The position numbers and the translations under genes were made by a program. A stretch of DNA of 64,000 nt, from positions 1-64,000 of IMG/VR virus record IMGVR_UViG_3300005529_000003; one strand, written 5' to 3'. The DNA is from a virus. The notes under the pieces were generated by a model that saw nothing but the letters and a program-made list of their open reading frames with translations, did no database searches and was not told where the DNA came from. Of this stretch, positions 1,873 through 33,072 are shown in pieces. How positions within the stretch are numbered: position 1 is the first letter of the stretch; each line of letters starts with the position of its first letter.

Positions 1873-2077
1873 GACGTCTGCGGCGTGGACAGCGTAGCGA
1901 GAAGTTCTGACCTTCTCGAATGGTACACGCGGTAGTGTAGTTGGGCTAATTGATCGCAGGGTCATCAAGCAGTCCTGGGACTCTCATGTCGAGCTTGAAT
2001 CTGACTACTTGCCAAAACAACAACACAAGAACTATGTTCATGAACTTGTGAGTCGGTGCAATTCCGATCGGACGTCT
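1873..2077 (+). ncRNA. About 205-nt tRNA-like RNA with expanded D, anticodon and variable arms
   Basis: GACGTCT/GGACGTC 7-bp stem, GCGTG/CACGC D stem, GTCGG-TGCAATT-CCGAT T arm, CACAAG/CTTGTG arm. Confidence 0.65.
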
Positions 2078-2086
2078 TTTACTTAC

Positions 2087-2238
2087 GCGGGTATAGCTCA
2101 GTTGGTTAGAGCGCGTGACTGATAATCACGAGGTCGGGCGCTGATCCCATAACGGAATTGATCACCTGTTATGAATCTAGGCGGCTACTATGAGGCATAT
2201 GACTCACAAGTAGATTGGTTCGACTCCCCCTACCCGCT
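2087..2238 (+). tRNA. tRNA-Ile(GAT) with a 78-nt insertion in the T stem
   Basis: GCGGGTA/TACCCGC acceptor, canonical D arm, CGTGA-CTGATAA-TCACG, GGG[2139-2216]GG-TTCGACT-CCCCC. Confidence 0.85.
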
Positions 2239-8345: not shown

Positions 8346-8605
8346 TCGCTGTGAATGTCGTGACATGCCCTTGTTGCGGTCAGTCGATTTACTCTAGAGC
8401 ACGTCACGACTTCCGCTACTGCAACTGTGGCGAGGTGTGGGTCGATGGCGGTCTTGATTACTTCCGCTACCCTCTTCATACTGAGAAAGACAACCTCGAC
8501 GTGAAGACGTCTGTCGTTACCGTGGACGCAACGAGAGAGCAACTCTACCTCGACTACAAGAAATCTCGCAATCTCTTTGGCACTCTTCCCTCGACAGATC
8601 CATGA
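8342..8605 (+). CDS. Zn-ribbon phage protein
   Basis: CPCCGQSIYSRARHDFRYCNCGEVWVDGG. Confidence 0.7.
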   Translation: MIAVNVVTCPCCGQSIYSRARHDFRYCNCGEVWVDGGLDYFRYPLHTEKDNLDVKTSVVTVDATREQLYLDYKKSRNLFGTLPSTDP

Positions 8606-8886
8606 CCACTGAAGCGCAGACGTTCCTTGAGTATTTGAAAGCCTCTGGTCCTCCTCCAGATAAGCCCGACCCTCGCCCCTTCTACAATCAAGCCGGCAAT
8701 ATCATTCACTGGTATTGGGGAAGTGATCGGTCGTATGAGAAGTCGATCTTCCACGAAAGAGATGATGGGCTAAAAGTCTGGATAGGCTCTTTGGAAATCT
8801 CGATGGAAACAAATCAAGTTGTCGGTGTGAAGATACACGGCGAAGCAATTAAGGGCCTTGAGCTTTCTAGAAAGACGGCGGTTTAG
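8602..8886 (+). CDS. Hypothetical protein
   Basis: ATGA overlap with the upstream gene. Confidence 0.55.
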   Translation: MTTEAQTFLEYLKASGPPPDKPDPRPFYNQAGNIIHWYWGSDRSYEKSIFHERDDGLKVWIGSLEISMETNQVVGVKIHGEAIKGLELSRKTAV

Positions 8887-27497: not shown

Positions 27498-27595
27498 ACT
27501 TCTCCCCGCCTTTCTCCCGGTCGTTGAGCGTAAATAAAAAGTCCTCTCTTCTCCTTGATGAAGAAGAGAGGACTTTTTTTCGATACTCAGCACGC

Positions 27596-29600: not shown

Positions 29601-29648
29601 CAGAACGCTTAACCGATTGCATTGGTAAGAAGTTGCTGTGAGCGTTCT
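29601..29648 (-). ncRNA. ACAGCA-motif small RNA
   Basis: AGAACGCT-CACAGCAAC...AGCGTTCT-G. Confidence 0.75.
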
Positions 29649-29883: not shown

Positions 29884-30081
29884 TCAACACTGGTCGTTGA
29901 CTGCTGGTACTGGCTTTTCGATTTTCGTGTCTCGGTCGAGGAGTTCGTCCCGAACGATGTTGACATCCGGAGGAGCCTCAATCCCGATGCGGATTCGATT
30001 TCCTCGGACTTCGAGAATCTTCACCTTTATGTCTCCATCAATGATCAACGATTCGCCGACCTTGCGAGAGAGTACGAGCAT
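29884..30081 (-). CDS. csrA: Carbon storage regulator CsrA/RsmA
   Basis: MLVLSRKVGESLII...IRIGIEAPPDVNIVRDEL. Confidence 0.92.
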   Translation of the reverse strand: MLVLSRKVGESLIIDGDIKVKILEVRGNRIRIGIEAPPDVNIVRDELLDRDTKIEKPVPAVNDQC

Positions 30082-30083
30082 AT

Positions 30084-30290
30084 TCACTTTCCCTTCCGAC
30101 TCTTGTAGATGTAACCATTCACTCCGATGATGATCTTCTCACCATTGAACTCGGCTTCTGTCGTCTTGTTGCCATGTGTGGACGCCACGACGAGCGTCTT
30201 GCCACTCGCTGACTCGCGGGCCTCCTTGTAAAGTGGTAGCCGGATCACTAGTTCGTCGCCTTCAATCTTCGCTGAAACTTCATTCGCCAT
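30084..30290 (-). CDS. Conserved small hypothetical protein
   Basis: SASGKTLVVASTHGN motif; AAGGAG upstream. Confidence 0.7.
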   Translation of the reverse strand: MANEVSAKIEGDELVIRLPLYKEARESASGKTLVVASTHGNKTTEAEFNGEKIIIGVNGYIYKSRKGK

Positions 30291-30316
30291 CCATCGTCTC
30301 CTTCTAGTGTTAAAAA

Positions 30317-30545
30317 CGAAACGCCGTAGGGTTCTTTTGCTTTACCGTTAAGCTACTCCCCCTGAGTACCGCTACGGTAAATACCGTATAACGCCCGCGG
30401 CCGGCGACTCGATTAAAACTTCGACTGTTAAACGATTCGCGACTCGTAACCGTCTGCGTAGACTATCGAGCGTGATCTAGAGGGGGAGGCGGGAGTCGAA
30501 CCCGCATCAAAAGATTAATGTAAGTAAGTTTGCTGTCGGCGTTTC
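30317..30545 (-). ncRNA. YrlA-like permuted tRNA-mimic RNA with a 117-nt acceptor-loop insert
   Basis: Stem+GACAGCAA, then T arm GCGGG-TTCGACT-CCCGC, CTCCCCCT...AGGGGGAG, D arm TAGCTTAACGGTAAAGC, closing stem. Confidence 0.8.
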
Positions 30546-30563
30546 TTGTTATGTGCAAGAAAA

Positions 30564-30675
30564 CGAAACACCGTCTTTTCATCTTTCGCGTCTACCAGTT
30601 CCGCCACTCAAAAGCTTTCGCTGTTGAGGTGGGACTCGAACCCACATGATAAAGAGTTAATGCTGTTGGTGTTTC
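30564..30675 (-). ncRNA. YrlA-like permuted tRNA-mimic RNA
   Basis: Stem+AACAGCA, T arm GTGGG-TTCGAGT-CCCAC, GAAA-capped acceptor, D arm TGGCGGAACTGGTAGACGC, closing stem. Confidence 0.85.
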
Positions 30676-30685
30676 TGAGAAGGTT

Positions 30686-30771
30686 AGACAGCAACTCCAG
30701 GCTCTTTACCTTTGGCGGGACTGGCTTCTCGCCAGTCCCGCCTACGCATTGCACGTACGGAGTTGCTGTCT
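30686..30771. ncRNA. Self-complementary ACAGCAA element
   Basis: 13-bp inverted repeat AGACAGCAACTCC/GGAGTTGCTGTCT around a 12-bp GC hairpin. Confidence 0.6.
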
Positions 30772-30781
30772 GTGTATTAAA

Positions 30782-30831
30782 CGGAACGCTTGACCTTTGG
30801 TGATGGTGGTTGAGGTTGCTGTGAGCGTTCC
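30782..30831 (-). ncRNA. ACAGCA-motif small RNA
   Basis: GGAACGCT-CACAGCAAC...AGCGTTCC-G. Confidence 0.75.
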
Positions 30832-31604: not shown

Positions 31605-32054
31605 CTAATAAACCAGAGCGCTTTCATTCTTTGCTCTTTCTTGTTTTTCTTCTCGCCATTCTTTCCAGGCGTTGAAGAGTGCCTCTTCTGCGTTCTGAAG
31701 AGATGAAAACCCTTTCCATCCTTCTTGTTTTCGTTCCCTCTTCACTTTGTCGAAGAGTTCCTTACAGAGGTAATCTCCTCTGTTCTCTTTAACTCCTATT
31801 GGTTCCCCAGGCCAGTAAGACCAATCTTCCTTGCCGTCACCTGTTGTCGTTCCTCCATATCCGTAGAGAGAAGGCAGCAGCTTCCTCTCAAGCAGCCACT
31901 CCTGAAATTGTGCGAAGTAGTCGTTGTCTTCCTCGTCGCGAATCCACCAGATGAACGCCTCCTTGCTTGAAGGTGCTCTTAGCCTTTCGCAGCGTTCATC
32001 CCAGTAGTCCTTAACCTCTTGTTCGAGGATCTTGTACCAGTCACTCCTCGTCAT
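31605..32054 (-). CDS. Divergent TIGR02996-like protein
   Basis: MTRSDWYKILE...WIRDEEDNDYFAQF...AEEALFNA. Confidence 0.6.
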   Translation of the reverse strand: MTRSDWYKILEQEVKDYWDERCERLRAPSSKEAFIWWIRDEEDNDYFAQFQEWLLERKLLPSLYGYGGTTTGDGKEDWSYWPGEPIGVKENRGDYLCKELFDKVKRERKQEGWKGFSSLQNAEEALFNAWKEWREEKQERAKNESALVY

Positions 32055-32526
32055 TGATCTTCTCCGGCGTCTTCTGTGTCTCTTGCTTTTCCCACGGGTA
32101 ACGAGCGGCGAGGCACGCATTCACGGACAACGGCTCGAGGTCCTCCCACATCTTCTGCACCTTCTCTTCGGGGACGCCGTGCGCGTTCGGGTAGCCGCCC
32201 TCGCAACGAATGAAGACGATTGTCGCGTTGTACTTCATGCCCAACTCGACGTAAGGGCGAGCTTCCCAAGCCTTGATGTTCGTGTTGTCCACGATCACGT
32301 TGTGCCCGTTCATCAGCAACGCCTCAACGCGGATCTGGTTGTAGCGGTGGAACTCCTGGAGCTTCTCGGGCTTGAAGACGTACGCTCCGGTCACATTGTC
32401 GATGAAGTACTCGTCCGTCGAGCAGATCTTGAAGCGAGGTTGTGCGTTCCTCCAGCCGTTGTTCAACTCGTTGGCGAATGTGGACTTCCCCGAGCCTGGC
32501 GGGCCTTGCATGATCACGAGGTACAT
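32041..32526 (-). CDS. N4BP2-like polynucleotide kinase (AAA_33)
   Basis: MQGPPGSGKST, CSTDEYF, VIVDNTN..AWE..PY, NAHGVP. Confidence 0.8.
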   Translation of the reverse strand: MYLVIMQGPPGSGKSTFANELNNGWRNAQPRFKICSTDEYFIDNVTGAYVFKPEKLQEFHRYNQIRVEALLMNGHNVIVDNTNIKAWEARPYVELGMKYNATIVFIRCEGGYPNAHGVPEEKVQKMWEDLEPLSVNACLAARYPWEKQETQKTPEKINDEE

Positions 32527-32951: not shown

Positions 32952-33031
32952 TAGGGCCGGCAGGAATCGAACCTGCCTTCGGCGTTGATTAGCTATATCG
33001 TCGCCTTAGTCTAGTTAGCACCAGCAACCCT
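32952..33031 (-). ncRNA. Non-canonical tRNA-like element
   Basis: AGGGTTG/CGGCCCT acceptor, GCAGG-TTCGATT-CCTGC T arm; atypical D and anticodon arms. Confidence 0.55.
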
Positions 33032-33037
33032 ATAAAA

Positions 33038-33072
33038 CCTCCCGACGCTTCTCTTGCGATGGCGTCGGGAGG
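33038..33072 (-). terminator. Intrinsic terminator-like hairpin
   Basis: CCTCCCGACGC...GCGTCGGGAGG with a T run on the minus strand. Confidence 0.6.

Follow-up and report, generated by a model that had tools for sequence, protein, structure and literature searches.

A circularly permuted tRNA mimic in a soil phage: a putative YrlA-like Y RNA with a CAGCA handle linked to DUF2828 genes

The phage locus and the anatomy of the element

The window analysed here is a stretch of 64,000 nucleotides from the start of a virus record that is 94,830 bp long, complete and bearing direct terminal repeats, and the phage sequence comes from a soil metagenome. On the minus strand there is no open reading frame of at least 60 aa between positions 30291 and 30977, the block in which the 111-nt RNA element of this study lies. 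In downstream order, the minus-strand block contains a hairpin, a three-way junction, the element and a sibling tRNA mimic. It continues with a 68-aa ORF and a CsrA homologue, a second hairpin, a lysine-rich 86-aa ORF, a 553-aa gene and a terminator-like hairpin. The features with assigned coordinates are as follows.

30784-30830, minus strand: short handle hairpin GAACGCU-CACAGCAAC...AGCGUUC (fold z = -4.16)
30686-30771, minus strand: three-way junction, 86 nt (-58.5 kcal/mol, z = -9.8)
30565-30675, minus strand: tRNA-mimic RNA, whole element, 111 nt
30318-30545, minus strand: sibling tRNA mimic, handle GAAACGCCG / CGGCGUUUC plus ACAGCA
29884-30087, minus strand: phage-encoded homologue of CsrA (Pfam CsrA, 79 bits), in the interval from the RNA array to the DUF2828 gene
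29603-29647, minus strand: short handle hairpin with the stem of 30784-30830, 346 nt upstream of the DUF2828 start codon
27596-29257, minus strand: DUF2828/DUF7788 gene (Pfam), 553 aa, 1.3 kb downstream of the element on the same strand
27534-27582, minus strand: 19-bp hairpin plus U run right after the DUF2828 stop (-29.2 kcal/mol, z = -7.5), likely the terminator of the unit

Together with other handle-bearing RNAs, the element forms an array tied to the DUF2828 gene, a setting that the preliminary description did not include. The sibling mimic has the same AAAGA/UCUUU stem as the element and carries a 119-nt insert in its acceptor loop. No promoter-like (sigma-70) site and no terminator of its own are predicted beside the element.

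Read 5' to 3', the element consists of a handle stem, an ACAGCA box, an equivalent of the anticodon stem, a variable loop, a T arm, a capped acceptor, a D arm and the return strands of the outer helices. Its parts, all on the minus strand, are listed below.

30668-30675: handle 5' strand GAAACACC, forming 8 Watson-Crick pairs with GGUGUUUC (30565-30572), also in the minimum free energy (MFE) fold
30661-30666: ACAGCA box, single-stranded, 1 nt past the handle stem and continuing as ACAGCAU
30582-30586: AAAGA, paired with UCUUU (30651-30655) as a perfect 5-bp anticodon-stem equivalent
30629-30645: T arm GUGGG-UUCGAGU-CCCAC, with G53, T54, T55, C56, R57, A58 and C61 in tRNA numbering
30607-30628: acceptor helix CUCAACAGC / GCUUUUGAG, 9 bp, made up of 7 tRNA-like and 2 extra pairs
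30587-30606: U8, G9, D arm GCG-GAACUGGUAGA-CGC and G26 (full stretch UGGCGGAACUGGUAGACGCG)

By direct reading, the 5' part of the element is GAAACACCAACAGCAUUAAC. Its minus-strand sequence starts with GAAACACC, A, ACAGCA, UUAAC, UCUUU, AUCAU and GUGGG-UUCGAGU-CCCAC, continues with CUCAACA-GC-GAAA-GC-UUUUGAG, UG, GCG-GAACUGGUAGA-CGC and G, and ends with AAAGA, UGAAAAGAC and GGUGUUUC. The acceptor helix has a single C.U mismatch, at 2-71, and is capped by a GAAA tetraloop (30616-30619). In the D-arm region U8, A14 and G18G19 are present, and A15 pairs with U48 (30646). The D arm and its flanks (UGGCGGAACUGGUAGACGCG) resemble the D arm of E. coli tRNA-Leu. The variable region is of the short class I type, which indicates that the body was not copied from one tRNA despite its Leu-like D arm. 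A variable loop of 5 nt adjoins the anticodon-stem equivalent, and a 12/9-nt internal loop that holds ACAGCA replaces the anticodon loop and leads to the 8-bp terminal stem. Direct reading of the element reveals neither an anticodon loop nor a free CCA end. The tRNA body is circularly permuted but complete, and it is sealed at the acceptor end.

The stem, ACAGCA, T arm, GAAA-closed acceptor, D arm and closing stem reported in the preliminary description are all found where it placed them. Its closing stem is present, but in fact consists of two helices, the anticodon-stem equivalent and the terminal handle; the 5-bp pairing of UCUUU (30655-30651) with AAAGA (30586-30582) had not been noted.

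Several other features were observed in this phage. The 13-bp closing stem of the three-way junction at 30686-30771 is formed by a ACAGCAAC box paired with its own exact antisense, and this structure could be a masked handle or an anti-handle. A gene for an AAA_33/KTI12-type P-loop kinase (PNK-like) lies at 32041-32526 (minus strand), 1.4 kb upstream of the RNA array, and a perfect T arm is found at approximately 32976, within 32952-33072 (minus strand). The pattern AAAAGTYTCTC, a recurrent hairpin, was not enriched. A fifth handle hairpin, GAACGCC-AACAGCAAC...GGCGUUC (z = -4.1), is located at 1638-1691 on the plus strand, opposite to the DUF2828 gene and 28 kb from it, approximately 400 nt before a split tRNA-Ile. 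The latter is a tRNA-Ile(GAU)-like gene at 2087-2238 (plus strand) that scores 45.1 bits with the Rfam tRNA model and was not found by ARAGORN. The 5' strand of its T stem is split by an insert of approximately 84-89 nt (GGG / insert / GG-UUCGACU-CCCCC) at a position that is unusual for an intron, and it is the sole anticodon-bearing tRNA-like gene in the phage. As the phage has no ordinary tRNA gene, the handle/DUF2828 system does not depend on a phage tRNA array.

A covariation-backed fold and a shared handle motif

Standard searches are silent on the element, in keeping with the earlier expectation that tRNA scanners would miss it: ARAGORN reports no tRNA at the element, in the window or anywhere in the phage genome, and an Rfam scan of the window at gathering thresholds gives nothing at the element. 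A search with the YrlA model had been proposed as a check. At a permissive threshold, Rfam YrlA (RF02553) aligns from its first to its last model position with 30562-30675 (minus strand), scoring 25.4 bits where the threshold is 69 (E = 0.01 for 1.6 kb searched). In the phage collection, blastn found nothing that matched the RNA region.

The proposed fold has an energy of -28.8 kcal/mol compared with -31.2 for the MFE fold, a gap of 2.4. The MFE fold keeps the handle, the acceptor hairpin and the anticodon-stem equivalent, and is without the T and D arms; the shuffle z-score of the element is -1.85. Thermodynamics by itself is weak support, and energy alone would not carry the case. Comparison with other phages was made using DUF2828 as an anchor, through which 71 viral and 80 metagenome loci were collected; a search for related loci in viral contigs with the single protein gave none, and the alignment query gave the loci. 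MAFFT alignments of the RNAs (A2 and A3) put the 3' handle strands out of register, and for this reason a covariance model was seeded from three members of near-identical length with a hand-written structure, and then iterated. Model R1, built from three loci of other phages only and with the present sequence left out, finds exactly 30565-30675 (minus strand) at 27.4 bits (E = 0.0033 in 937 kb, both strands). The observation of a compact permuted tRNA mimic at 30565-30675 (minus strand) is confirmed.

A structural scan recovered the same architecture (handle stem, CAGCA, anticodon stem, T arm, capped 7-bp acceptor and D arm) in loci L002, L004, L012, L055/L059 and L070, always on the DUF2828 strand. 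On the model-fitted alignment A6 of 10 members from different phages, which was fitted to the structure so that the counts depend on it, standard pairs occupy 93.1% of cells compared with 57.1 +/- 2.2% in shuffles (0 of 500 shuffles reach this value), and 25 of the 29 pairs show changes on both sides, including all nine pairs of the handle helix and all seven of the acceptor. The covariation score on this alignment is 0.925, versus 0.24 in shuffles and 0.06-0.20 when the partners are slid by 1-3 columns. Independently of the fitted alignment, the Levitt pair 15:48 is A:U in eight and G:C in eight cleanly parsed modules, and it switches between the orthologous elements of L055 and L065. In the same modules U8 and A14 do not vary. 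The fold is supported by covariation.

The handle is a motif in its own right. Across 119 handles the consensus reads A-R-R-N3-C-N-U-A-CAGCA-A, followed on the 3' side by a U-rich flank, and CAGCA is invariant in alignments A2 and A3. The family signature is a stem of 7-9 bp followed after 0-3 nt by CAGCA(A/U), and the element has an 8-bp stem, 1 nt and CAGCA. Most handle members are hairpins of 40-60 nt, and tRNA-like cargo is found in a subset of them; several members have an acceptor loop of only 4-8 nt. In the closest DUF2828 relatives (49-53% identity), short handle hairpins directly flank the gene and one stem, AAACACC/GGUGUUU, is shared. The examined flanks of these relatives hold no tRNA-like cargo, which leaves the present copy without a close orthologue for testing.

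A second class of permuted mimic was seen in L052-L071, for example at 2032-2157 (plus strand) of L055. It has a Leu-like D arm and an acceptor loop of 19-21 nt, a long extended stem replaces the handle and there is no CAGCA box. This class is conserved between L055 and L065, where its pairs show compensatory changes.

Strand-specific linkage of handles to DUF2828 genes

Handle-bearing RNAs are linked to DUF2828 genes in a strand-specific manner. The refined model R2 matches the viral loci 55 times at E <= 0.1 and the metagenome loci a further eight times at E <= 0.001, in every case on the strand of DUF2828; in the present phage, R2 matches the sibling mimic in part (30415-30545). In five whole phage records (642 kb), every full-length match is co-oriented with DUF2828; the distance to the gene is 0.1-2.5 kb in four of the records and 5.6-11 kb in the remaining one. 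A simple signature, defined as a 7-bp perfect stem followed by CAGCA after 0-3 nt, occurs 163 times in sense and 69 times in antisense orientation in the viral loci, where nine control 5-mers give 18-64. Across 89 loci, sense handles reach a density of 14.7 per 10 kb up to 250 nt from the gene and antisense handles one of 0.46, an enrichment of approximately 30-fold. Sense density is 5.2 per 10 kb at 250-500 nt and approximately 0.8-1.1 further out, and antisense density ranges from 0.1 to 0.95 per 10 kb. A handle lies within 500 nt of the DUF2828 gene in 47 of the 89 loci.

Cultured phages are among the carriers, and none of the handles in the five phages listed here is annotated.

Escherichia phage SUSP2: four handles flank DUF2828, one of them tRNA-like (46.6 bits)
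Mycobacterium phage Whirlwind: three handles in the 380-nt gap after the gene, one of them tRNA-like (78.7 bits)
Listeria phage LMSP-25: three handles just upstream of DUF2828
Bacillus phage Skywalker: three handles inside the tRNA array
Campylobacter phage PC14: two handles just upstream of DUF2828

The DUF2828 gene adjoins tRNA arrays in these cultured phages, and in LMSP-25 also genes for RtcB, an RNA ligase and a phosphohydrolase. No handles were seen in Vibrio phage nt-1. The tRNA-like handle RNA of Whirlwind (8544-8671 of locus L077, plus strand) is located directly after a gene annotated as 'Ro-like', and it has a CCA in its capping loop straight after the 3' strand of the 7-bp acceptor, an arrangement reminiscent of M. 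smegmatis YrlA, which is processed by RNase P and CCA addition.

The pairing of handle RNAs with DUF2828 occurs in many phages and was found in no RNA catalogue or paper. DUF2828-linked CAGCA-handle RNAs are absent from Rfam 15, and full-text literature searches on DUF2828, Ro-like phage proteins and phage Y RNAs returned no paper on them.

A Ro60-like predicted protein fold and the possible role of the RNA

The 553-aa product matches Pfam DUF7788 at 76.9 bits, with DUF2828 just under the cut-off, and its relatives in GenBank phage records are labelled 'DUF2828' or 'Ro-like RNA binding protein'. An AlphaFold model made with 40 homologues (pLDDT 87.8, pTM 0.89) predicts a ring of helical repeats with a C-terminal vWA domain. 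The best 12 Foldseek matches in the PDB are all Ro60/Rsr/TROVE proteins, including 1YVR, 2NVO and 9KOP, and these Ro60-type matches extend over 520-600 columns with E values of 8e-7 to 1e-4, TM scores of 0.33-0.55 and approximately 13% identity. The Ro60 of Thermus phage phiLo is among the Foldseek matches. The predicted fold of this protein is thus Ro60-like. No match to TROVE (PF05731) was found in the complete phage genome, nor any link of the DUF2828 protein to TROVE at the sequence level, and when the DUF2828 alignment was used as a profile against PDB sequences, nothing above noise came up (a chitosanase at E = 0.045). With this predicted fold and the linkage described above, the DUF2828 protein is most likely the partner of the RNA.

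Chen et al. (2014, PMC4201824) described YrlA RNAs from 22 phages and 254 bacteria. These RNAs are encoded on the same strand as a TROVE Ro60 gene and no more than 4 kb from it, are bound by Ro60/Rsr, and carry close to their 5' end the motif GNCGAAN0-1G, through which Rsr presumably makes contact (PMC4201824). Their tRNA-like domain comprises a T arm, an acceptor-like stem and a D arm, with covariation at 15:48 (PMC4201824). YrlA is modified by TruB and DusA in addition to being bound by Rsr (Chen et al. 2014, PMC4201824), and in M. smegmatis YrlA, which has a 7-bp acceptor, RNase P cuts the RNA and CCA is added (PMC4201824). The present RNA resembles YrlA in several respects. A presumed protein-binding stem at the joined ends, a T arm, a capped acceptor-like stem and a D arm are combined in one RNA; the nucleotides of the tertiary pairs are kept, including covariation at 15:48; and the RNAs, several per locus, are near and co-oriented with the gene for a ring-plus-vWA protein. 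The earlier assignment of the T-before-D order, lacking an anticodon loop or free CCA, to the YrlA layout therefore agrees both with the published structure (PMC4201824) and with the alignment of Rfam YrlA to the whole element. It had also been proposed that the protein-binding end differs from that of YrlA, and this is borne out. GNCGAAN0-1G does not occur in the 5' part, where (U)ACAGCA(A) is found instead, the score of 25.4 bits falls under the Rfam threshold of 69, and the neighbour is a DUF2828 gene 1.3 kb away and not a TROVE Ro60 gene. In further contrast to YrlA, the acceptor has the full 7 bp and is extended to 9 bp with a GAAA cap. By motif, Rfam threshold and TROVE neighbour the element thus falls outside YrlA, while layout and logic are shared. 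Among DUF2828-linked members in 13 loci none reaches the YrlA threshold, and the best YrlA match among these RNAs, in Whirlwind, covers the tRNA-like core only (model positions 24-84, 38.3 bits).

A further comparison is with phage phiLo, whose Ro60 binds two upstream Y-like RNAs with a CGAA motif as well as host PNPase (PMC12135203). The phiLo system of Ro60 with Yrl1 and Yrl2 (PDB 9KOP and 9L5Y) is similar to the present locus in that small RNAs lie just upstream of the gene for a phage ring protein. It differs in that the RNAs are chosen by the CGAA motif and are not described as tRNA-like, and in that the protein is a recognisable Ro60 homologue (PMC12135203). From these comparisons, the element appears to be a Y RNA of the YrlA-like type that differs in its handle and in its putative Ro-like partner.

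The explanation that we favour, with a probability of roughly 0.6, is that the element is the gene of a stable non-coding RNA of approximately 111 nt, of which the handle would be bound by the DUF2828 protein and the tRNA module would present an elbow. Transcription as a discrete RNA is presumed in this explanation. One module, the 8-bp terminal stem with ACAGCA single-stranded at its inner end, would be a docking handle. The other is a tRNA body that is open where the anticodon loop would be and closed off at its acceptor end; the coaxial stack of acceptor and T arm is kept, as are the D arm, the anticodon stem and the elbow-forming nucleotides. The Ro60-shaped phage protein would most likely bind the handle as Ro60/Rsr binds Y RNAs, a proposal based on linkage and analogy, and the tRNA-shaped module, the working end in this view, could offer its elbow to a factor that recognises tRNA shape. 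Candidates for this factor are enzymes of processing, modification or repair, an exoribonuclease, and a defence protein of the host that is directed at tRNA. The elbow and the acceptor/T stack have been kept while the anticodon and the free 3' end, on which translation and most tRNA toxins rely, are gone, and an adaptor role is therefore favoured. Such an adaptor might dock a factor that recognises tRNA shape to the particle, or it might hide the RNA of the particle among tRNAs; the tRNA module may serve in recruiting or in blocking.

Two other explanations leave the DUF2828 protein without a part in the function of the RNA. The mimic could act on its own as a decoy, titrating a host defence or toxin directed at tRNA, with DUF2828 a mere neighbour among genes for tRNAs and RNA repair. 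The genes around it are of the expected kind, as the DUF2828 genes of cultured phages sit in tRNA arrays beside RtcB, RNA ligase and phosphoesterase genes and a PNK-like kinase gene lies 1.4 kb upstream in this phage; a phage without ordinary tRNA genes also has no tRNA supply to which the mimic could belong. However, the mimic is without the anticodon loop and the free 3' end, which are the usual targets of tRNA-directed toxins, and a decoy leaves unexplained both the invariant CAGCA on a covarying stem and the 30-fold sense enrichment within 250 nt of DUF2828. We consider this explanation unlikely. Slightly less likely again is a role in cis, with the element serving the processing or stability of a polycistronic transcript; it would be cut by enzymes of the RNase P or RNase Z type so that adjacent mRNAs are separated or stabilised, and would have no role as a free RNA with DUF2828. 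RNase P does cut M. smegmatis YrlA with its 7-bp acceptor (PMC4201824), the element sits in a block of same-strand genes with no promoter-like or terminator-like site of its own, and the only strong terminator comes after the DUF2828 gene. Against this, it is the handle and not the tRNA part that tracks DUF2828, upstream or downstream of the gene and including hairpins with no likeness to tRNA. An acceptor extended into a GAAA cap is also a poor RNase P substrate, and the acceptor helix here, running 2 bp beyond the tRNA end into such a cap, would probably be cut inefficiently.

The permuted order of the element itself allows for two further origins. In permuted tRNA genes, such as those of the red alga Cyanidioschyzon merolae, the 3' half comes before the 5' half, and the present RNA is similar to these genes and to two-piece permuted tmRNA in having the 3' half first and the T arm ahead of the acceptor 5' strand; it differs from both in having no anticodon loop, CCA end or tag reading frame. 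A permuted tmRNA was rejected, as the Rfam tmRNA_permuted model gives a chance-level match on the sibling only (16.1 bits, E = 1.1) and ARAGORN reports no tmRNA. That the element is a permuted tRNA gene, cut, rejoined and matured to a working tRNA, would fit the order of the halves and the complete tRNA body, but is very improbable: no 7-nt anticodon loop can be formed, the would-be position 33 is G and not U, the conserved box occupies the place of the anticodon, there is no CCA, the acceptor is capped by a loop that has only 4-8 nt in several members, and the phage encodes no RtcB ligase. Equally improbable is a chance resemblance, or a remnant of decayed tandem tRNA genes in which the T arm of one lies beside the D arm of the next. 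Chen et al. warned that dimeric tRNAs can score as YrlA (PMC4201824), and the Rfam score of the element is low. Nevertheless, no tRNA lies on either side, all five helices are intact, and the same architecture with covarying helices recurs in unrelated phages.

Returning to the favoured explanation of an RNA bound through its handle by the DUF2828 protein, a broader proposal, to which we give slightly better than even odds, is that DUF2828 and the CAGCA-handle RNAs make up a second, undescribed particle of the Ro/Y-RNA type that is common in phages and whose cargo aims at tRNA-recognising factors. The handle would dock to a Ro60-shaped ring and carry interchangeable cargo, here a whole tRNA body with no anticodon, and this cargo could target host or phage factors that recognise tRNA in a contest over tRNAs during infection. 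As a part of this proposal, and at the same odds, the phages concerned would include Felix O1-like, P100-like, Tsamsa-like and cluster L phages.

Ro60 and Y RNAs form a conserved RNA-surveillance particle whose function in bacteria is poorly understood, and the role of the tRNA-like module in bacterial Y RNAs is a standing question. The DUF2828-linked RNAs would add a class of RNA gene that is missed by present phage annotation, ARAGORN and Rfam being silent on its members. The carriers are spread over easily grown phages of E. coli, Salmonella, Listeria, Bacillus, Campylobacter and Mycobacterium, in which the RNA and the protein can be deleted and pull-down is possible. If the proposal is true, a second family with another handle and a very divergent ring protein would provide new experimental systems with which to address the question of the tRNA-like module.
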